A stretch of DNA of 62,414 nt, counting the filler. It is 5 parts of 5 records of this genome, joined end to end, with 100 filler letters (N's around TTAATTAATTAA, not from the genome) between each part and the next. Parts side by side here need not be neighbours in the genome. Positions count along the whole stretch, not along the records: positions 32,786 to 49,803 come from DRR723986_7756; 4 more parts are not named here. The stretch is one strand, 5' to 3'. Shown one piece after another: positions 2,143-44,196 of this stretch. The stretch's first letter is position 1, and the number at the start of each line of letters is the position of its first letter. The translations under genes and the position numbers were made by a program. The notes under the pieces are model-generated. The model had not been told where the DNA came from. It did no database searches and saw nothing but the letters and a program-made list of their open reading frames with translations.

Positions 2143-3204
2143 ATGGCTACCAGAACACTAAAAGTCCGTGTTAAAGATCGTCACGCCAATGTGTTGCGTG
2201 AGATGTCACGTTCAGTGAATTTTGTCTGGAACTACATCAATGAACTTAGCCATCGCTCGATCAAAGAGCGGGGCCAATTTCTTTCAGCCTACGACCTGCA
2301 CCCCTATACCAAAGGCGCGGGCAAAGAACTGAGGCTTCACAGTCAAACCTTACAGTGCATCGCCGGGGAATATGTTACCCGGCGTAAGCAGTTTAAGAAG
2401 TCGCGCCTGAATTGGCGCAAGTCAGGTGGCGCTCGACGGTCGCTGGGCTGGATACCGATTAATACGGGGCAGGCCCAGTGGAAGAATGGTCAGGTGTTAC
2501 ACAACGGACACTATTTCAAGGTCTGGGATAGCTATGGTCTTAGCCAATATCAATTCCGTACTGCCAGTTTTAATGAAGATGCCCGAGGTCGCTGGTACTT
2601 CAATGTGGCGGTCGATGTCGATGTCGAGGTGGAACAGGCTAAAGGTAAATCAGCCGTTGGTATTGATTTGGGCTGTAAAGACACGGCGACGGATAGTAAC
2701 GGCGATCAGGTTAAAGGGCGAGAGTATCGCGCTCTGGAGGAGAAGCTGGGTATTGCCCAGCGAGCCAGAAACAAAAAACGCGTGAAGGCGATCCACGCTA
2801 AGATAAAGAATCGCAGGGCGGATGCCCTGCACAAATACAGCCGCAAACTCGTAAATGAGAATGCGGCAATCTTCGTTGGTAACGTATCAAGCCTCAAGCT
2901 GGTAAAGACCAAAATGGCGAAATCCGTTTTGGATGCCGGTTGGGGTCAGCTCAAAACCATGTTGGAATACAAGTGCGAAAACGCAGGCGTGGTCTTTGAG
3001 GAAGTCAACGAAGCCTACTCCACCCAGACGTGCTCGTGCTGCGGGGTCAACCCGGATAGCAGTCCGAAAGGTAGGGCCGATCTTGGAATAAGAGAATGGG
3101 TCTGTTCAGAGTGCGGAGCTGAGCATCAGCGCGATATCAATAGCGCTAGAAACATTCTTGCGCTGGGACACCAGCGTCTTGCGGAAGGAAAGGTAGCGGC
3201 GTAA
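2143..3204 (+). CDS. tnpB: RNA-guided endonuclease TnpB (353 aa), RuvC-II-rearranged type
   Basis: N-terminal VNFVWNY helix, GRWYFNV, RuvC-I VGIDLG, DAGWGQLKTMLEYK, VNEAYSTQTCSCCG/CSECG zinc ribbon, RuvC-III RDINSARNI. Confidence 0.95.
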   Translation: MATRTLKVRVKDRHANVLREMSRSVNFVWNYINELSHRSIKERGQFLSAYDLHPYTKGAGKELRLHSQTLQCIAGEYVTRRKQFKKSRLNWRKSGGARRSLGWIPINTGQAQWKNGQVLHNGHYFKVWDSYGLSQYQFRTASFNEDARGRWYFNVAVDVDVEVEQAKGKSAVGIDLGCKDTATDSNGDQVKGREYRALEEKLGIAQRARNKKRVKAIHAKIKNRRADALHKYSRKLVNENAAIFVGNVSSLKLVKTKMAKSVLDAGWGQLKTMLEYKCENAGVVFEEVNEAYSTQTCSCCGVNPDSSPKGRADLGIREWVCSECGAEHQRDINSARNILALGHQRLAEGKVAA

Positions 3205-25338: not shown

Positions 25339-25415
25339 TGGTGGGCCCGGCAGGATTTGAACCCGCGACCAAACCGTTATGAGCGGTCCGCTCTAACCAA
25401 CTGAGCTACAGGCCC
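25339..25415 (-). tRNA. tRNA with CAT anticodon, most likely tRNA-Ile2 (lysidine-modified)
   Basis: GGGCCTGTAGCTCAGTTGGTTAGAGCGGACCGCT-CAT-AACGGTTTGGTCGCGGGTTCAAATCCTGCCGGGCCCACCA forms a cloverleaf with encoded CCA. The paired G1-C72 excludes initiator tRNA. Confidence 0.92.
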
Positions 25416-36356: not shown

Positions 36357-38045
36357 ATGATGACCCCTCAATCTAGCGTCGCGCCCGAAAACCAAGTTCT
36401 ATCACGCGACCCCAAGCGGCTCCCCTCTGATCTACCGCTTGGCGCGGATCTACCCGACGACTTTGATCCGCTGGCCGACGGCATTCTGATGCAGCATCAG
36501 AAAGACTGGCTTGAAGATGCTAGCCCGCTCAAGCTCTGCGAAAAGGGACGCAGGACCGGCATCACCTTTGCCGAAGCCCTAGACAGCACCCTAACCGCCG
36601 CCGCCTCTCGAAAAGCGGATGGCGACAATGTGTTTTACATTGGCGACACCAAGGACAAGGGCCGCGAGTTTATCGGCTATGTGGCGCATTTCGCAAAGGT
36701 GATTGCCGGCGAGCTGGCCGAGATTGACGAATACATTTTCAAGGATGAACGCGAGGACGGTACATCCAAAGACATTACCTCTTATCGCGTCACCTTCAGC
36801 AGCGGGTTTCGGGTTGAGGCGCTCAGTTCCCGCCCCGCCAACATTCGCGGCCTTCAGGGAACCGTTGTCATTGATGAAGCCGCCTTTCACCAGGACGTTC
36901 GCGAAGTCATTGACGCAGTGAATGCCCTTTTGATCTGGGGCGGTCGTGTGCGGGTTATTTCCACCCACAACGGCGCATTGAATGCGTTTAATGAGCTGGT
37001 CCGCGAAGCCCGCGCTGGCAAGAACCCGTTCTCGGTCCATCACATCCCGTTCCAAGCCGCCATTGATAACGGGCTGTTCAAGCGCGTGTGCTTGATGAAA
37101 GGCTCCAAGTGGAGCCAAGACGCACAAGACGCCTGGGAGGCCCGGATCAGGGGCTCCTACGGGTCTCGCACCGCATCCATGATGCAGGAGCTGGACGCCG
37201 TCCCTTCGGATCTCGAAGGCGCGGCCCTGACCCGTGTACAGATCGAAGCTTGCATGGCGCAAAACATCCCCTTTGTGCATCTGCACAAACCGGACGCATT
37301 CAAGAACGCCCCCGATGAGGTGCGCAAATCCGAAACGCTGGAATGGTGCGAAGAGCACCTGAAGCCGGTTCTCGATAAGCTTGTCAAAAAGCGCAACCAC
37401 GTCGTGGGCGAGGATTTCGCGCGCAATGGTGACGCCACCGACATTGTAATTCTGGAAATCGGCGTCGATCTGGTGCGGCGCTCTAAACTGATTGTTGAGC
37501 TGCGCAACATCCCTTTCGATCAGCAGCGCGATATATTCTATTACATCTGCGACCGCATTCCGAACTTCATCAAGGGAGCCGTCGATAAAACCGGCAACGG
37601 TGCGTATCTGGCCGAAAAGGCCGCTCAGAAATACGGCCAACGCATAATCGAGGTAAGCCTGAGCCAAGACTGGTATGCCCGCGAAATGCCACCCTACATC
37701 GAGGCGTTTGGCGATAAGACCATCCTATTGCCCGCGCATGAAGACGTTCTGGCCGACCATCAGGCGTTGCAATACGTGAACGGATTGATCCGGGTTCCGA
37801 AAGATTTCCGCTTCAAAGGATCAGACGGCCTTTATCGGCACGGCGACAGCGCTGTCGCCAGTGCCCTGGCCTTTTTCGCAAGCCGTGAACCTTTTGGTGA
37901 AATCGATTATGAGCCGGTTACGGATACCCGCCAGCAAGATCTCTTTGGGGCGCAGCAGGGCGAGGCAATGTACGCGGACAACTCAGACGGCGGGCGCGAC
38001 TGGTGGGATCCGCCTTTGGGCAATCATCTGCGAGGGGGGATCTGA
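36357..38045 (+). CDS. Mu gp28-like large terminase
   Basis: EKGRRTGITFAEA, VIDEAAF, ISTHNG, DFARNGD, DKTGNG, RHGDSA. Confidence 0.93.
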   Translation: MMTPQSSVAPENQVLSRDPKRLPSDLPLGADLPDDFDPLADGILMQHQKDWLEDASPLKLCEKGRRTGITFAEALDSTLTAAASRKADGDNVFYIGDTKDKGREFIGYVAHFAKVIAGELAEIDEYIFKDEREDGTSKDITSYRVTFSSGFRVEALSSRPANIRGLQGTVVIDEAAFHQDVREVIDAVNALLIWGGRVRVISTHNGALNAFNELVREARAGKNPFSVHHIPFQAAIDNGLFKRVCLMKGSKWSQDAQDAWEARIRGSYGSRTASMMQELDAVPSDLEGAALTRVQIEACMAQNIPFVHLHKPDAFKNAPDEVRKSETLEWCEEHLKPVLDKLVKKRNHVVGEDFARNGDATDIVILEIGVDLVRRSKLIVELRNIPFDQQRDIFYYICDRIPNFIKGAVDKTGNGAYLAEKAAQKYGQRIIEVSLSQDWYAREMPPYIEAFGDKTILLPAHEDVLADHQALQYVNGLIRVPKDFRFKGSDGLYRHGDSAVASALAFFASREPFGEIDYEPVTDTRQQDLFGAQQGEAMYADNSDGGRDWWDPPLGNHLRGGI

Positions 38046-38188
38046 TGCCACGCAAATCTGATCAGCGTCACGGATACAATCAGCGCAGCCAATCCCCTGC
38101 CCCTGAAGAAACTGCGGAAATGGTTCACCGATTATGCATGTCCGCCCTGTTTCTCTTCGTCTTGTTCTTATGCCTCGGAGGTCTTTGA
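38045..38188 (+). CDS. Small (47 aa) putative membrane protein
   Basis: TGATG-coupled to the terminase stop and ends 1 nt before the portal start; hydrophobic C-terminus. Confidence 0.5.
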   Translation: MPRKSDQRHGYNQRSQSPAPEETAEMVHRLCMSALFLFVLFLCLGGL

Positions 38189-38189
38189 C

Positions 38190-39800
38190 GTGGCCAATAC
38201 ATCCCAAATCATCGACCGCTGGGGCCGCCCGATGCGCCGCGCAGCTCTTCTTGGAGAGGTTGCCGCCCCGACGATTGGTGGTGTGCGTTCTCCGGCAGCC
38301 GGCTACCCGGCGGACGGCCTAAACCCATTGCGCCTTGCAGCGATCCTGCGCGCCGCTGATCAAGGTGATCCGGTGCGCTACATGGAACTGGCCGAAGCCA
38401 TTGAGGAACGCGATCCGCACTATGTCGGCGTTCTTGGCACCCGCAGGCGGTCTGTCAGTCAATTGGACATCCGCGTGAAACCGGGCGGCAAATCCCCCAA
38501 AGCCAAGGAAATGGCCGCGCGTGTTGAGGACTGGCTGGACCGGGACGAATTGTCCGGTGAATTGTTTGATATCCTAGACGCGGTCGGCAAGAGCTACAGC
38601 TTTACCGAAATTCTCTGGGATCGATCCTCAGGCCAGTGGCAGCCGGGACAACTGGTGCGGCGTGACCAGCGCTGGTTCCGATTTGACCGGCGCGACCTCA
38701 CCACCCCCCTTATGCTTAATGAAGCGGGTCAAGAGGCCCCTCTGACAGCCTTCAAATTCATCTATGCCCGAATGTCCTCCAAATCCGGCTTGCCGCTCAG
38801 ATCCGGTCTTGCACGTGTTGCCTCGTGGGTCTGGTTGTTCAAGGCGCTCACCCAGCGAGATTGGGCGATTTTCACCCAGACCTATGGCCAGCCGCTTCGC
38901 CTAGGGCGCTATCCGGGCGGATCTTCTCAAGAGGACCGGGATAAGCTGTTCCGTGCTGTAGCCAATATTGCGGGCGACATGGCGGCCATCGTGCCAGAAG
39001 GCATGGATATCGAGTTCACCTCTGCGCCCAATCTCGCAGCCGCTGCCGACATCTATGAGAAGCGTTGCGACTGGCTGGACAAGCAAACGTCCAAGCTTGT
39101 TATCGGTCAGACCGCCACGACGGATGCAGAAACCGGCGGGCTTGGATCAGGCACAGAACACCGACAGGTTCAGGAGGATATCGAACGCGCCGACGCCAAA
39201 CAGCTCAGCGCCATCATCAACCAGGATCTGATCCAACCCTGGATGCAGCTTGAATTTGAAACGCTGGATGAAATCCCCCGCATTATCATTGGTCGCGAGG
39301 AGGAAGAGGATCTGGCCGCACTCTCGACCGCCATTGCCCCGTTCCTGACGCTTGGGTATCGCCCGAAACCGGAGACGGTCGAGAAATTTGGCCTCATTGC
39401 GCCCGAAACCCTATCACAACCAACACCGATGGGGCGCAACAGACCGGACAATACACCTGAGACTGGATTTGAATACCATTTGAATACCCGTGAAGGAAAT
39501 TCAGGGGCACTGACGACCCATCAGACTCAAGGGCACTCAGAGGGCCGCACAGCGCCTGAAGAACCTGAGACCATTTTGACCGGCGCGCTGGATCAGGCCG
39601 CAAGCCCAATGGTGGAGGCGATGATCGCCCAGATTGAGGCCATGCTAGAGGCGTCAAGCGGGTTGGATGAATTCCGCGAAATGATCCGCACTGGGTTTCC
39701 TAATTTAAACGAAAAGGAATTGGCGGACCTGTTCACGCAAGCGATGCAAACGTCTGAGGCCGGTGGGCGCGCAGCCGTTGAAGAAGACGCCGATGGCTGA
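38190..39800 (+). CDS. Mu gp29-like portal (DUF935)
   Basis: AILRAADQGD, EERDPH, YGQPLRLGRY, SKLVIGQTATT. Confidence 0.93.
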   Translation: MANTSQIIDRWGRPMRRAALLGEVAAPTIGGVRSPAAGYPADGLNPLRLAAILRAADQGDPVRYMELAEAIEERDPHYVGVLGTRRRSVSQLDIRVKPGGKSPKAKEMAARVEDWLDRDELSGELFDILDAVGKSYSFTEILWDRSSGQWQPGQLVRRDQRWFRFDRRDLTTPLMLNEAGQEAPLTAFKFIYARMSSKSGLPLRSGLARVASWVWLFKALTQRDWAIFTQTYGQPLRLGRYPGGSSQEDRDKLFRAVANIAGDMAAIVPEGMDIEFTSAPNLAAAADIYEKRCDWLDKQTSKLVIGQTATTDAETGGLGSGTEHRQVQEDIERADAKQLSAIINQDLIQPWMQLEFETLDEIPRIIIGREEEEDLAALSTAIAPFLTLGYRPKPETVEKFGLIAPETLSQPTPMGRNRPDNTPETGFEYHLNTREGNSGALTTHQTQGHSEGRTAPEEPETILTGALDQAASPMVEAMIAQIEAMLEASSGLDEFREMIRTGFPNLNEKELADLFTQAMQTSEAGGRAAVEEDADG

Positions 39801-41055
39801 GCCGTTTGCAGCCACGTTTCGAAAGCCGTTCAAAGAACAGGTCGCGGCCTTTCGTTTGCGCCTGGGCAATCTGGTGCCCACCTCCGCTTGGGACGACATC
39901 GAGCGCAACGCCCATGATCGCGGGTTTATGGTGGCGGGTGCGGTGAAGGCGGATCTGCTTGCGGATCTGGGCGCGGCGGTGGACCGAGCCATTTCCGAGG
40001 GCACCGGCTTTGAAGCCTTCAAAAAGGATTTCCGATCCATCGTATCGCGGCGCGGTTGGCATGGCTGGACCGGCGAAGGCACCAAGGGCGGCGAAAACTG
40101 GCGTATGCGGGTGATCTACAACACCAACATGCAGGTGAGCTATCAGGCGGGGCGTTTGGCCCAGCTCCGGGCCGGGAATTACAAATATTGGGTCTATCGC
40201 CACGGCGGGTCGCACGATCCCCGGCCAGAACACCTGGCACTGGACGGGTTGATCCTGCCCGCCGATCACCCCTTTTGGTCGATCTGGTTTCCGCCCAATG
40301 GGTGGGGCTGTAGTTGTCGGGTCTTTGGGGCGCGCTCTCTCAAGGGCGCAATTCGGCGCGGGGGTAATCCGGCTGTTGTGTTACCCCAAGGCTGGGACGT
40401 TCCCGATCCCCGCACGGGCGCACCAAAGGGTATCGATAAGGGCTGGGATTATGCGCCCGGAGCCTCCACGGCAGAAACAATCCGCGCGTTGACGCAAAAG
40501 GCCGTCAAATGGGACAATGTGCTGGCCAAAGAGTTTATGGCCGATCTGCCAACGCGCACGGTGGATGATTTCGCCGAAGGCTATCGACAGCAGCCAACGC
40601 TTCAAATCGAAACGCGCCGCTATGTCGAGCGGGTGCTGGGCGAGCGTGGTGGTGCGCCGATCTCAGCAGGCACCATCCAGCCCCAGCGCACTTTGGGGCG
40701 GCTGACGTCGCGCCATGTGACCGAACTGGAGCGGTTCGGCGCAAAAGCCGCCGGGTTTGATTTCTCAATAGAGCCGAATTCGGTGCAGCACGTGGTGCGC
40801 CGTCACACAAACACCAAGGTGGAACGATCCAGAGGTCAACGCGCCGTCACGCCTTTGGACTTTGCCCGCCTGCCCAGTTTTCTGGACGGGGCTTTGAAGG
40901 TGTCGGAAAACACTAGCTTCACCCCCGGACCTGGGCTGCGCTTGATGGAGTTTAAAATCCCGGTTGAAGGCGAAACTTGGCACGCGGTTTTTGAAATCCG
41001 CAAGCGTCGCCGAATGCTGGTCCTGAAAACGCTTTACATCAAAGGGAGAAGCTAA
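39793..41055 (+). CDS. MuF/gp30 head morphogenesis protein with a C-terminal extension (putative BECR-fold RNase)
   Basis: MuF motifs FMVAGA, IYNTN, PRPEH, PPNGWGCSCRV, GIDKGWDYAPG; extension carries QHVVRRH..E..RGQRAVT..DFARLP and LVLKTLYIK. Confidence 0.88.
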   Translation: MAEPFAATFRKPFKEQVAAFRLRLGNLVPTSAWDDIERNAHDRGFMVAGAVKADLLADLGAAVDRAISEGTGFEAFKKDFRSIVSRRGWHGWTGEGTKGGENWRMRVIYNTNMQVSYQAGRLAQLRAGNYKYWVYRHGGSHDPRPEHLALDGLILPADHPFWSIWFPPNGWGCSCRVFGARSLKGAIRRGGNPAVVLPQGWDVPDPRTGAPKGIDKGWDYAPGASTAETIRALTQKAVKWDNVLAKEFMADLPTRTVDDFAEGYRQQPTLQIETRRYVERVLGERGGAPISAGTIQPQRTLGRLTSRHVTELERFGAKAAGFDFSIEPNSVQHVVRRHTNTKVERSRGQRAVTPLDFARLPSFLDGALKVSENTSFTPGPGLRLMEFKIPVEGETWHAVFEIRKRRRMLVLKTLYIKGRS

Positions 41056-41136
41056 GGCGACCCGATCCCAACGTCCGAAGCGTTTCGCGGTAATTAGCGC
41101 GACGGTATGTGCCGCCTCAGCCAGTGAAATATAGCA

Positions 41137-41652
41137 ATGTTTGAAGTCAAAATCAATGAGGACACGATCACGACCGCGCTCAATAAGGCGCTGACCCGGC
41201 AAGATGATCTGTCAGACCTGATGCAAGATCTGGGCGAGCTGATGGTGGTGCGCACCCAAGATCGAATGACACAGGGCAAAGATGCGGACGGTCAACCTTT
41301 CGCGCCGCGTTCAGCATCGACCGAAAAGAGATACAAAAAACTAGGCCTCAAGTTTGGTGTCCCGTTGGATCAATCGGGTGGATTGCGTAAATCAATTGCC
41401 TATGACGCCGCCAAAGATCAGGTCTCTTGGGGCTCGAACCTCATTCAAGCCGCTGTGATGCAGTTCGGAGCCGAGGCCGGGGCATTTGGCGCACGTATTG
41501 GCAAGAACAAGCTGGGGCGTAGCTTTTTCATGCCCATCCCATGGGGTAACATCCCCGCCCGGCCTTATCTGGGGGTTGGAACAGCCGATAGCATGGCCAT
41601 TGTCGAAGAGATTGAAGATTGGCTGGCGGAAGGTTTTGAGGTCAGTGATTGA
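41137..41652 (+). CDS. Mu gpG-like virion morphogenesis protein
   Basis: DGQPFAP, GSNLIQAAVMQFG, IPARPYLG. Confidence 0.88.
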   Translation: MFEVKINEDTITTALNKALTRQDDLSDLMQDLGELMVVRTQDRMTQGKDADGQPFAPRSASTEKRYKKLGLKFGVPLDQSGGLRKSIAYDAAKDQVSWGSNLIQAAVMQFGAEAGAFGARIGKNKLGRSFFMPIPWGNIPARPYLGVGTADSMAIVEEIEDWLAEGFEVSD

Positions 41653-41700
41653 CCTGAAACGCAGATGATTGCACCTTGAGCGCAAGCCCATTCCGGCCAC

Positions 41701-41747
41701 CCCACCGACCCCGGTGGGTGTAACGGAAAATGCCAAGCAGCGATATT
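41701..41747 (+). promoter_or_regulatory. Late promoter 2 (protease/capsid operon)
   Basis: CCCACCG-ACCC-CGGTGGG-TGTAA, then 18 nt, then GATATT, 6 nt before ATG 41754. Confidence 0.75.
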
Positions 41748-41753
41748 CGCTGC

Positions 41754-42854
41754 ATGAATACGCTTCACCAAACCACAGCGCTTTGCGCGCAATCCCTACC
41801 CGCTGACGCGGGCGACGGGGGTGTTCCTGAATGGGTTCACCTGCTGCCCACAAATGGCGGCGGCGTCTACACCAACGACAATCGCGGACCTTACAACGTG
41901 AGCGATGCAAACGCCTTGATCGCGTCGAGCCTTCAAGCCGGTGATCGGCTGCCTATCGATGAAAGCCACGCCACGGATTTGGCCGCGCCCAAAGGTCTCC
42001 CCGCCCCGGCGCGCGGCTGGATTACCGAGCTGCAAGCGCGAGAGGACGGGATCTGGGGTCGTGTCGAATGGACAGAGGAAGGCCGCGAACTGGTGGCTTC
42101 GCGCTCCTATCGCGGCCTGTCTCCGGTGATTTCCCACCCCCGAAAAGGATCAAACGAGATTATCGCAATCCAGCGCGCAAGCCTGGTGAACACGCCCAAT
42201 CTTTTGGGCCTGACAACCCTGCACCAAAAGGAAACCGACATGAATTTCCGCGAAACCCTCGCGAAGCGCTTCGGGCTCGACCCGGAAGCCTCGGAAGAGG
42301 ACGTTCAAAAGGCCATCATTGCCCTGGAAAAGGGCGGCGACAAAGAGACCAGCCTGCAATCGCAGCTTACCGAGATCGGCACCGTTCTGGGCGTGGCACA
42401 AGGCGCTGACGTAGTGGCTGCAGCAAAGGCCGCGAAAGCGGCGCAATCGGGAACAAACGACGATATCGTGACCTCTCTGCAATCCGAGGTCACCACATTG
42501 GCGACCCAAAACGCCGCGCTGACAACCTCGCTGAACGCGATGCAAACGGACCGCGCAACGGAAAAGGCGACGACTTTCATTGACGGTGAAATCGAGCGGG
42601 GCCGGATCATCCCGAAATCTCTGCGCGATCACTTCATCACCCGCCACCAAGCCGACCCCGAAGCCGTTGAAAAGGAAATTCTGGCGATGCCCACGCTCGG
42701 GCCGTCCGGGCTGACTGTCACCCCACCTCCGGCCAAAGACGGCACTGTCACGCTTCATGCGGAACAGAAGACCGCCGCCCGCCTTCTGGGGGTTTCCGTT
42801 GAAGAATACACCAAGACGCTCCAGTCGGAGCAAGGCAATGGGGAGGTCGTTTAA
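41754..42854 (+). CDS. Mu gpI-like prohead protease with nested scaffold
   Basis: PEWVHLLP, LPIDESH, APARGWI, VEWT, YRGLSPV, LVNTPNL; internal SD plus ATG at 42240. Confidence 0.92.
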   Translation: MNTLHQTTALCAQSLPADAGDGGVPEWVHLLPTNGGGVYTNDNRGPYNVSDANALIASSLQAGDRLPIDESHATDLAAPKGLPAPARGWITELQAREDGIWGRVEWTEEGRELVASRSYRGLSPVISHPRKGSNEIIAIQRASLVNTPNLLGLTTLHQKETDMNFRETLAKRFGLDPEASEEDVQKAIIALEKGGDKETSLQSQLTEIGTVLGVAQGADVVAAAKAAKAAQSGTNDDIVTSLQSEVTTLATQNAALTTSLNAMQTDRATEKATTFIDGEIERGRIIPKSLRDHFITRHQADPEAVEKEILAMPTLGPSGLTVTPPPAKDGTVTLHAEQKTAARLLGVSVEEYTKTLQSEQGNGEVV

Positions 42855-43285
42855 TGGTGGCCCTTACGTCAGACCGCAACACCGCCCGCGCCGATGGGGA
42901 TGTCCGCCAAGGCCCAGTGGCCGCTGCCACCCGGATTTTTGCCGGAGCCATTGTTATGCGTGACGCCGCCGGACACATCGTCCAGGGCAAAACCGCCGTT
43001 GGCTTGGTCGGCATCGGGCGTGCGGAAGCCCGCGTTGACAATTCCGCCGGGGCCGCAGGTGACGAAACCGTCCCTTACCGGCCCGGCGTCTATCGCTACG
43101 CCAATTCCGGCGGCGGCGATGAAATCACCAACGCCGAGTGTGGGGCCAAAGTATTTGCCGTGGACGACCACACCGTCGCCAAGACGGACGGCACCGGCAC
43201 CCGCTCCCCTGCTGGCATCGTTGATCACGTGGACGCCGACGGCGTCTGGGTGCGCTTTGACGAAGCCCTGACAAACGCATCTTAA
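42854..43285 (+). CDS. Putative head decoration/cement protein
   Basis: ALTSDRNT, IFAGAIV, VDDHTVAKT, GVWV; lies between the protease and capsid genes. Confidence 0.7.
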   Translation: MVALTSDRNTARADGDVRQGPVAAATRIFAGAIVMRDAAGHIVQGKTAVGLVGIGRAEARVDNSAGAAGDETVPYRPGVYRYANSGGGDEITNAECGAKVFAVDDHTVAKTDGTGTRSPAGIVDHVDADGVWVRFDEALTNAS

Positions 43286-43296
43286 GGAGCCCTCTG

Positions 43297-44196
43297 ATGC
43301 TAGTGAATGCCGCAAACCTCGACAGCCTGCGCGTGGGCTACAAGACCTCGTTCCAAAACGGTTTGGGACAGGTCGAACCGATGCGCGACCGGATCGCCAC
43401 AACAATCCCGGCGACCCAGAAAGAACAAAAATACGGCTGGCTGGGCAAAGTGCCCAACATGCGCAAGTGGATCGGTCCGCGCGCAATCCAGAATATGACA
43501 CAGCACGACTATTCGATCAAAGAAGAGCCTTGGGAGCTGACGATCGGTGTCGACCGCGACGACATCGAAACCGACAATCTCGGTATGTACGGGCCTATGT
43601 TCAATGAAATGGGCATGTCGACCGGCTCGAACAAAGAGCTGCTGGTCTGGAACCTGATCGAACAGGGCTGGACCACGCCGTGTTACGACAAACAGAACTT
43701 TTTCGACACCGACCACCCGGTTCTGGACAAAGACGGCAATATGATCACCGTCGCCAATACCGATGGGGGTGCAGGCGCGCCCTGGTTCCTGATCGATGAC
43801 AGCCGCGCAATCAAGCCTGTCCTCTTGCAGTTGCGCAAGGACGACGAGTTTGTTGCCATGGATGATCTGACCTCCTCGAACGTCTTTAAGAACAAAGAAT
43901 TCGTTTACGGGGTCGATGCGCGTTACAACGCCGGGTTCGGGTTCTGGCAGTTTGCCTGGGGTTCCAAGCAGCCCCTCAATGCGGCGAATTATGCCAACGC
44001 CCGCTCCAGCCTGAGCGGCATGAAAGGCGATCATGGCCGACCGCTTGGCATCCGTCCCAAATTGCTGGTGGTGCCGCCCTCGCTGGAAAGCGCAGGCCGC
44101 AAGATCCTCAATTCTGACAACGCCGCCGGTGGCGAAACCAACGAGTGGAAGGGCACCGCCGAGTTGATGGTCTGCCCTTGGCTCCAAGCCGCTTAA
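43297..44196 (+). CDS. Mu gpT-like major capsid protein
   Basis: YGWLG..P.MRKWIG, DDIETDNLGMY, CYDKQNFFDTDHP, YGVDARYNAGFGFWQ, LVVPPSLE. Confidence 0.95.
   Translation: MLVNAANLDSLRVGYKTSFQNGLGQVEPMRDRIATTIPATQKEQKYGWLGKVPNMRKWIGPRAIQNMTQHDYSIKEEPWELTIGVDRDDIETDNLGMYGPMFNEMGMSTGSNKELLVWNLIEQGWTTPCYDKQNFFDTDHPVLDKDGNMITVANTDGGAGAPWFLIDDSRAIKPVLLQLRKDDEFVAMDDLTSSNVFKNKEFVYGVDARYNAGFGFWQFAWGSKQPLNAANYANARSSLSGMKGDHGRPLGIRPKLLVVPPSLESAGRKILNSDNAAGGETNEWKGTAELMVCPWLQAA

Follow-up and report, generated by a model that had tools for sequence, protein, structure and literature searches.

The window is the whole stretch of DNA analysed here, 62,414 nucleotides (nt) long. The subject is a structured RNA element located in the 81-nt gap (41056-41136) between two genes of a Mu-like head operon. 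The upstream gene encodes a MuF head protein with a nuclease-like C-terminal domain, and the downstream one a gpG-like virion morphogenesis protein. The features of the locus are listed below. P1, P2 and P3 are the helices of the element; R1 is the covariance model described further on.

39763..41055, + strand: MuF (Mu gp30-like) head protein gene with a C-terminal nuclease-like domain; 430 amino acids (aa) from GTG; stop codon TAA at 41053-41055.
40615..41052, + strand: PBECR3-like (putative BECR-fold) RNase-like C-terminal domain of MuF; residues 285-430 (about 146 aa).
41054..41118, minus strand (the more likely functional strand; R1 was built and scored on the + strand): conserved three-helix RNA element; R1 match of 50.3 bits.
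41055..41059: P1, first strand, AGGCG; overlaps the last base of the MuF stop codon.
41070..41084: P2 hairpin, AACGT-CCGAA-GCGTT; one T.G pair; the family-invariant ACG and CC are present.
41085..41102: P3 hairpin, TCGCG-GTAATTAG-CGCGA; on the minus strand, an anticodon-arm-like hairpin.
41113..41117: P1, second strand, CGCCT; pairs with AGGCG at 41055-41059.
41128..41156, minus strand: promoter-like site (promoter scan); TTGATT at 41156-41151, 17-nt spacer, TATATT at 41133-41128 with TG before it.
41137..41652, + strand: gpG-like virion morphogenesis gene; Pfam Phage_tail_S, E 1.6e-27.

A structured RNA after the MuF stop had been proposed in an earlier, sequence-only reading of the window, and all the pairings named there are present in the sequence. 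The + strand of the gap contains no reading frame of 40 aa or more. No candidate immunity-protein gene adjoins the nuclease-like domain in the window, and the gap is too small for one.

The gap holds a conserved structured RNA element that has a base-paired pattern of conservation and is found only with the C-terminal domain class of the window MuF. This was established on 173 loci around MuF homologues, gathered from IMG/VR, metagenomes and genomes by searches seeded with the window protein; many of the metagenome loci may be related to one another. For each locus, the interval between the MuF stop and the gpG start was measured and the C-terminal extensions were clustered by BLASTP. Class 0: MuF genes with the PBECR-like C-terminal class of the window (52 distinct loci). 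R1: covariance model of 16 pairs in P1, P2 and P3, built from 18 trimmed sequences. RNAalifold on the raw MAFFT alignment, with its ragged ends, gave 0 pairs, which made trimming and a covariance model necessary. Over the 173 loci and the whole window, R1 gave 57 matches at E <= 1, all in the sense of MuF and all at the ends of class-0 genes. The match at 41054-41118 (E about 5e-9) is the only one in the window. At E <= 0.01, the element was found in 39 of the 52 distinct class-0 loci (18 are seeds); five others gave weaker matches and eight none. Among the 84 distinct loci outside class 0, of which 20 have a short MuF gene, no match was obtained. The enrichment check suggested in the sequence-only reading, with short MuF genes as the control, thus came out positive (39/52 against 0/84; short-MuF control, 0/20).

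Gap lengths differ between the types of MuF gene. Short MuF genes (264-318 aa) abut or overlap gpG. Class-0 gaps are mostly 57-97 nt long and have the motifs of the window in common. Behind two other extension classes, the gap contains a separate conserved element, of about 120 nt in one and about 92 nt in the other. MuF genes with ART or peptidase-like ends are followed by gaps of another kind (180-330 nt), without the TATAG box.

The helices are conserved as pairs. In the 39 distinct R1-aligned sequences, 85.2% of the paired cells are paired (66.1% after shuffling) and the covariation score is 0.49 (0.16 after shuffling; 0.03-0.08 with slid partners); neither value was reached in any of 500 shuffles. 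Pairs changed on both sides are 6/6 in P1, 5/5 in P3 and 3/5 in P2. Compensatory changes are therefore found in every P1 and P3 pair, at protein identities of 30-45%. The 39-sequence alignment is fitted to R1 itself; the plain MAFFT seed alignment of 18 sequences gives 80.7% paired against 68.8%, and a covariation of 0.307 against 0.125. On these alignments, a closing helix enclosing two hairpins is the right architecture for the family, despite the lack of thermodynamic signal in the window copy when compared with shuffles (z of +0.55 over 111 nt and +1.05 over 82 nt). The minimum-free-energy fold of the window gap departs partly from the pairings of the sequence-only reading. The compact fold claimed there thus stands as an architecture conserved with covariation in the family, not as a property by which the window copy exceeds shuffles. 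An extra helix between the joining strands (e.g. GGATC/GATCC in L024 and L088) had no common register across sequences and was dropped.

Known elements and simple alternatives were searched for in the same region. As had been stated earlier, the gap contains no intrinsic terminator: a scan for a GC-rich hairpin followed by a U tract gave no such site in the gap on either strand. Rfam 15 gave two chance-level rows only over 38000-44000 of the window at E <= 10 (13-18 bits; gathering scores 95-105), and nothing overlapping the class-0 element across 17 related loci. No repeat is visible by eye in the 81-nt gap (repeat-finding programs were not used). In the phage GenBank collection, one DNA match, within gpG only, and five weak protein matches were found.

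The association is also seen with short motifs. A sequence resembling ACGTCCGAA had been named, in the sequence-only reading, as present near the ends of other genes for such domains, and this is borne out. The exact 9-mer ACGTCCGAA is located near the stop in 8 of the 52 distinct class-0 loci. ACGYCC is located near the stop in 44/52 class-0 loci and 5/84 others, and is also present in a distant low-GC lineage. The association was tested from the RNA side with a degenerate 27-nt pattern across P2 and P3, run over IMG/VR. The pattern was found in 36 places, against about 3-6 expected by chance (own rough estimate). Thirty-one of the 36 lie -35 to +26 nt from the end of a reading frame matching the class-0 profile, with MuF upstream and gpG downstream. 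R1 was applied to 14 of the 36 places; L191, L210 and L223 are without the R1 structure and were taken as chance. The other two places are L225 and L224, treated below.

R1 does not cover all variants. It misses L013, L035, L041 and L077, where parts of the element are visible by eye only, and fails on the low-GC relatives L174, L182 and L183, in which the order of the hairpins differs. In this low-GC lineage (L174-L183, reached through the homologue P0037), the gap is 125 nt long and carries the same ACGTCCGAAACGT hairpin; P2 is thus kept between the GC-rich and low-GC lineages. The low-GC gap has a 12-bp (base pairs) closing helix, with one compensated pair in L182 and a C.A in L183 where L182 has the compensated pair. 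The low-GC element is without match in the phage GenBank collection. A search with P0017 for non-MuF domain contexts gave two marginal loci only. In L002 (same sequence as L011), an 87-aa frame (2771-3034), which could be an inserted gene or have arisen by chance, begins 2 nt after the MuF stop; the RNA element follows it as a weak copy (R1 E 0.03-0.055, at 3023-3086).

The element and the domain move together as a cassette, as judged from the phylogeny of the N-terminal parts. For the N-terminal 250 residues of the window MuF, the nearest relatives (81-77% identity) belong to another C-terminal class, with the 120-nt element, and identity to the best relative of class 0 is 69%. At least 52 changes of C-terminal class were counted on a FastTree tree of 134 distinct N-terminal parts, a quick method whose tree may be blurred by recombination. 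Among 10 independent pairs differing in class-0 status, the R1 match differs in the same way in 6-8, in the opposite way in 0 and not at all in 2-4 (median p 0.016). In L225, the order is: a MuF gene of another class, the tRNA-shaped element of that class, a remnant of the last residues of a class-0 domain, and an R1 RNA (70.5 bits). The two clean RNA-less members of class 0, L022 (gap of -4) and L030 (gap of 30), are without the H..H..E..RGQ stretch of the domain. The exchange is of the kind seen in polymorphic toxins: the variable C-terminus is swapped with its partner, and displaced (L225) and orphan (L224) modules are found.

The domain itself is a predicted RNase. Its match to PBECR3 (PF18812) is weak and below the gathering score (18.4 bits, cut-off 30; E 0.0022). 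The conserved residues are all present in the window domain: H343, H348, E354, RGQ357-359, D366 and E411. Representative homologues number 183 at E <= 0.001, and many of those that seem to stand alone look like fragments of MuF genes. An AlphaFold model of the domain (pLDDT 94) gave VIA-align matches to BrnT (Z 7.7), a Salmonella toxin (6.4), CdiA-CT (5.5), RelE (5.2) and the colicin D tRNase (5.0), with Z values ranging down to 4.2. The model is suggestive, not firm, evidence of a BECR-type alpha/beta RNase-toxin fold, because all Z values are below 8. No match was found by a PDB sequence search with the domain, and none at E <= 0.001 by Foldseek with the domain model. In the available text of Iyer et al. 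2017 (PMC5512222), PBECR domains are predicted RNases fused to MuF and proposed to be injected with DNA, an RNA-binding role is predicted for inactive MuF-C/PBECR domains, and MuF proteins are head components thought to be injected.

Sister elements occupy the same position after other MuF classes. They were examined by eye, with ARAGORN and with Rfam only. The element of about 120 nt follows MuF genes of 388-408 aa (a C-terminal class without Pfam name; gaps of 114-143 nt) and is found in L005 (2665-2788), L037, L038, L051, L052, L089, L109, L122 and L130. Its closing helix is GCAGGCG...CGCCTGC; covariation of the inner helices is apparent by eye, and the TATAGC box again precedes gpG. Where the gap of this 388-408-aa class measures only -4 to 4 nt, conserved residues of the protein are altered (HPEL to YRDL) or the tail is replaced. 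In the gaps of about 92 nt after the MuF_C-like class, ARAGORN called a tRNA on the strand opposite to MuF in 4 of the 9 gaps tested. Rfam gave only sub-threshold matches to the tRNA clan in the gaps of this class. The four calls have canonical T and D arms and differing anticodons (Arg gcg, Arg ccg, Lys ctt, undetermined):

L087 2788-2867, minus strand: tRNA call (ARAGORN).
L093 2856-2938, minus strand: tRNA call (ARAGORN).
L166 2773-2849, minus strand: tRNA call (ARAGORN).
L171 2155-2225, minus strand: tRNA call (ARAGORN).

Two further conserved motifs, beginning CGGAGGGTCGGGGCACCCCTCATG or GGGGCGGCACCTGG, were observed in the gaps after other MuF C-terminal subgroups: L036, L072, L075 and L084 (102-110 nt); L073, L149, L164 and L081 (138-189 nt). 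The gaps of 180-330 nt without a TATAGC box follow ART ends in L042, L068 and L162 and peptidase-like (metallopeptidase-like) ends in L091, L118, L123 and L139; by analogy with what is described for MuF toxins, they may hold small immunity genes.

The functional strand of the element is more likely the one opposite to MuF, which has its own promoter-like site. Four lines of sequence evidence favour it: the excess of A.C over G.U, the promoter-like site that travels with the element, the predicted stability and the tRNA-called sister class. On the + strand, the non-Watson-Crick cells of P1, P3 and the inner P2 pair comprise 26 A.C/C.A and 6 G.U (44 and 10 over all pairs). Of all cells, 85% are paired when read on the + strand and 91% on the minus. 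Minimum free energy favours the minus strand in 36/39 elements, and z (dinucleotide shuffling) does so in 27/39, with mean z of -1.03 (minus) and -0.66 (+).

In the window, transcription from the promoter-like site is predicted to start at about 41121, 3-4 nt outside P1. Its -10 box corresponds to the conserved (A/T)ATAGC that precedes the gpG start, and its -35-like hexamer lies in codons 6-7 of gpG. A promoter-like site in this fixed register, scored at 8/12 or more, was found in 21/43 class-0, 11/20 class-1 and 7/13 class-2 RNA gaps, and in 0/27 abutting loci and 0/7 ART or peptidase loci. A -10-like hexamer (at least 4/6) is present in 28/35 elements and lies 8-13 nt from the R1 edge in 25 of these 28. 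In L225, a TATAAC box adjoins the RNA, 55 nt from the gpG start. Minus-strand promoter-like sites are also found in the noncoding DNA of the low-GC lineage (11/12 in L174, 10/12 in L183), and T-rich tracts after the closing helix on the minus strand are clearest in L174, L182 and L183. Transcription from the minus strand, with a promoter overlapping the gpG start, is thus fairly probable. A strong + strand terminator-like hairpin with a T run was observed in L183 (2634-2655), between the RNA element and the next gene and just beyond the minus-strand promoter-like site.

On the minus strand, the main hairpin of the family copies the anticodon stem-loop of tRNA-Met(CAU) in its sequence; some copies match the initiator tRNA in the stem and flanks as well. 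P3 is then a 5-bp stem with a 7-nt loop, with CAT central in 27 of 39 elements; the loops are CTCATAC (13 of 39), CCCATAA (5), CTCATAA (3) and others. In the family, P3 has the features of an anticodon arm (5-bp stem, 7-nt loop, U33, purine 37), and its loop and flanks copy C32, U33 and A37 of the tRNA. Over 21 nt, the L043 minus strand shows 100% identity with tRNA-Met genes of 5,426/5,426 E. coli genomes (median of 4 places in each genome). This sense-oriented match corresponds to the anticodon arm (tRNA positions 26-46) of three tandem E. coli tRNA-Met (initiator) genes. In five Rhodobacteraceae genomes, the arm of the initiator-type tRNA is CGTCAGGCTCATAACCTGAAG, which has 15 nt in common with L023 and the same stem as L152. 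Exact 17-nt and 13-nt patterns of L043 are absent from these five genomes; GGG of L043 corresponds to AGG in their initiator-type tRNA. The tRNA likeness is confined to the anticodon arm, with no D arm and no CCA. ARAGORN found no tRNA in the window gap nor in L064, L031, L024 and L044.

The window copy does not have the anticodon-arm features of the family. Its P3 loop on the minus strand is CUAAUUAC (8 nt, without CAU); the flanks CGTC...GAAA are kept around the 8-nt CTAATTAC. A search of IMG/VR gave no other copy with this loop. The window copy has kept its three helices and the promoter-like site, but since its 8-nt anticodon-like loop is atypical, it may have shifted in specificity or be decaying. 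A separate tRNA-Met (CAT) was called by ARAGORN at 25339-25415 of the window (minus strand), 16 kb upstream of the head operon; its anticodon stem is unlike that of the initiator-type tRNA.

The reading preferred here is tentative and unproven: a cognate RNA that mimics tRNA would decoy or neutralise a virion-borne, anticodon-nuclease-like domain. A small structured RNA gene in the gap would belong with the upstream PBECR-type nuclease-like domain. Its transcript would begin at the P1 edge and run back into the 3' end of MuF. The RNA would occupy the active site of the nuclease as a substrate mimic and protect translation in the producing cell. It would perhaps shield lysogens from incoming particles, as immunity proteins do for other MuF toxin domains. 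That the domain is a virion-carried anticodon nuclease, and the RNA its cognate decoy or antidote, is possible and somewhat doubtful. A wider form of this reading, still more doubtful, is that each RNase-type MuF C-terminal class would be paired with its own antisense tRNA-mimicking RNA, with its own promoter, in the F-G gap. Three pairings would be concerned: the PBECR3-like class with the element described here, the 388-408-aa class with the element of about 120 nt, and the MuF_C-like class with the tRNA-shaped element. In the producer, the virion-borne anticodon nuclease would be blocked by the RNA; in lysogens, or in other prophages with orphan copies, the RNA would guard against incoming particles. 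Domain and RNA would be exchanged jointly, as toxin-antidote cassettes in which the RNA replaces the immunity protein, just as polymorphic toxins exchange toxin-immunity pairs.

Several observations speak against the preferred reading. For the strand: mean z is only weakly better than shuffles on both strands; the T.G pair of P2 in the window is a wobble on the + strand only; the promoter score of 8/12 is reached in only about half of the loci; the -35 hexamer lies within conserved gpG codons, and the conserved TATAGCC could belong to the translation start of gpG instead. For the mimicry: the loop is not CAU in 12/39 elements, the window copy among those without CAU, and the window copy gives no thermodynamic signal. 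For the cassette: recombination may blur the N-terminal tree; L053 is without the catalytic stretch and has kept the RNA; L117 has kept the catalytic residues, has no R1 element and has another sequence after the stop. In L224, the RNA (57.2 bits) follows an unrelated 486-aa gene near an integrase, and no MuF-PBECR gene is present within the 3 kb examined.

Four other explanations were weighed; in decreasing order of weight they are a + strand mRNA element, a cis-antisense RNA, a partner or cargo RNA, and a relic. The element is certainly contained in the late transcript, because its orientation is always that of the operon and it lies 14-39 nt before the gpG start. It could therefore be a cis-acting + strand element of the late mRNA, which would act on gpG translation or stability, as a processing site, or in autoregulation through binding or cutting by the nascent domain; in a variant, the + strand loop displays AUG and could pair with the anticodon of the initiator tRNA. 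The P2 pair of the window that exists on the + strand only and some P1 pairs that are G.U on that strand would fit, as would the RNA-binding role predicted for inactive MuF-C/PBECR domains in the available text of PMC5512222. The explanation is unlikely in either form, as A.C mismatches on the + strand outnumber G.U (26 to 6), the sister class is tRNA-shaped on the minus strand only, and the loop and flanks, on the minus strand, copy the tRNA itself (C32, U33, A37). Moreover, in L225 the TATA(G/A)C box has remained next to the RNA, away from the gpG start, and the gene that follows is a different one in L174, L182 and L183. The promoter-like sites and the strand statistics fit equally well a type I-like cis-antisense RNA, convergent with MuF and overlapping its 3' end, which would pair with the late mRNA and suppress leaky expression from the nuclease gene or the operon; its helices would serve for stability or kissing contacts only, without direct contact with the protein. 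The predicted transcript does enter the 3' end of MuF, and T-rich tracts follow P1 in L174, L182 and L183. Such an RNA, to which little weight is given, would leave unexplained the copy of the initiator tRNA anticodon arm (loop and stem), the three unrelated RNAs found with three domain classes and the orphan copy away from MuF in L224.

The RNA could also be a partner of the domain and not its antidote, i.e. a substrate, guide, cofactor or cargo bound by it, for example packaged with MuF or aiming the nuclease. The association and cassette data fit equally, and MuF proteins are head components thought to be injected (available text of PMC5512222). The joint loss of the RNA and of catalytic residues in L022 and L030 fits an antidote at least as well, and a partner role is considered improbable. 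Least weight is given to a functionless relic, in which a captured tRNA fragment and the common junction for recombination of C-terminal cassettes would be conserved by hitch-hiking, with a decaying copy in the window. The unique, non-canonical loop of the window copy, its lack of thermodynamic signal and the frequency of cassette exchange (at least 52 class changes on the N-terminal tree) would agree with a relic. Compensatory changes in all P1 and P3 pairs of 39 sequences whose proteins have identities of 30-45%, and retention of the P2 hairpin between the GC-rich and low-GC lineages, make it very improbable.

The preferred decoy or antidote reading can be compared with several known systems. 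Type III toxin-antitoxin systems (ToxIN, CptIN, TenpIN) have an antitoxin RNA made of tandem repeats, located upstream of the toxin gene on the same strand and processed by the toxin. As in these systems, the RNA would neutralise an adjacent endoribonuclease, and phage or anti-phage contexts are common to both. Here, by contrast, a single non-repeated RNA of three helices is located downstream, probably on the opposite strand, and the nuclease is a domain of a virion protein. The sequence-only reading had inferred a module of a nuclease and its cognate RNA, analogous to type III. The tie between a structured RNA and the domain is borne out (39/52 against 0/84). The type III architecture has to be abandoned: tandem repeats are absent, and the RNA does not precede the nuclease gene on its own strand. 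In type I pairs, the toxin is a small membrane peptide whose mRNA is the base-pairing target of the RNA. The present locus is similar in that its small RNA gene would converge on the toxin gene, with an overlap at the 3' end of the latter; unlike in type I, conservation here concerns a tRNA-like hairpin and unpaired motifs that lie outside the overlap. BECR-fold toxins (BrnT/BrnA, RelE/RelB, CdiA-CT/CdiI, colicin D/ImmD) have the fold predicted for the domain (Z 7.7 to 4.2). According to the titles of their structure entries, colicin D and several CdiA-CT domains are tRNases. BrnT, RelE, CdiA-CT and colicin D are all neutralised by proteins. Mu-gpT-DE is a conserved RNA motif located after the major head gene of Mu-like prophages. 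It is likewise an orphan structured RNA motif inside a Mu-like head operon; its position and sequence are different, and Rfam 15 gave no match to Mu-gpT-DE in 38000-44000.

MuF polymorphic toxins (Jamet et al. 2017, PMC5576092, available text) likewise have a MuF N-terminus and a variable C-terminal effector exchanged jointly with its partner. Unlike the MuF toxins with immunity proteins described in that text, the partner here is an RNA of about 65 nt. The words "intergenic", "non-coding" and "BECR" have 0 occurrences in the available text of the same article. In the available text on PARIS (PMC11464382), the viral T5 tRNA-Lys neutralises this tRNA-cutting defence: as proposed here, a phage RNA of tRNA type counters an anticodon-directed nuclease. 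In PARIS, the nuclease is a host defence and the RNA a functional tRNA that takes the place of the cleaved one; in the present case, the phage encodes both the nuclease-like domain and, adjacent to it, the RNA, which is only a partial mimic. No described RNA was found at the position of the MuF-gpG gap in the literature (subscription journals and supplements are outside the coverage). By analogy, the element would act as RNA antitoxins of RNases do, without the type III architecture, and would behave like a toxin-immunity cassette with an RNA partner.

The remaining features of the head operon are of Mu type:

38190-39800: portal gene.
41730-42854: I protease gene.
43297-44196: gpT capsid gene.

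In the MuF protein, Phage_Mu_F (Pfam) covers residues 70-187 (E 9.6e-16). The close homologues of the window MuF all begin, in the alignment, at the Met corresponding to residue 11. The true start is therefore probably the ATG at 39793, 10 codons after the listed GTG, which overlaps the end of the portal gene by a few bases. A second gap of the same operon (77 nt, 41653-41729) separates the gpG and protease genes.

Mechanism aside, the element represents a new, well-supported family of structured RNAs, with at least two sister families at the same position. By the presence of these families, "gaps" of Mu-like head operons are probably genes. If the preferred reading is true, a substrate-mimic RNA would be the antidote of a protein nuclease domain and would be inherited with it as a swappable cassette. 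RNA antitoxins, polymorphic toxin-immunity systems and phage tRNA countermeasures would thereby be joined. An uncharacterised and very widespread family of phage RNases would also gain a testable target: for PBECR, the anticodon loop of the initiator tRNA.

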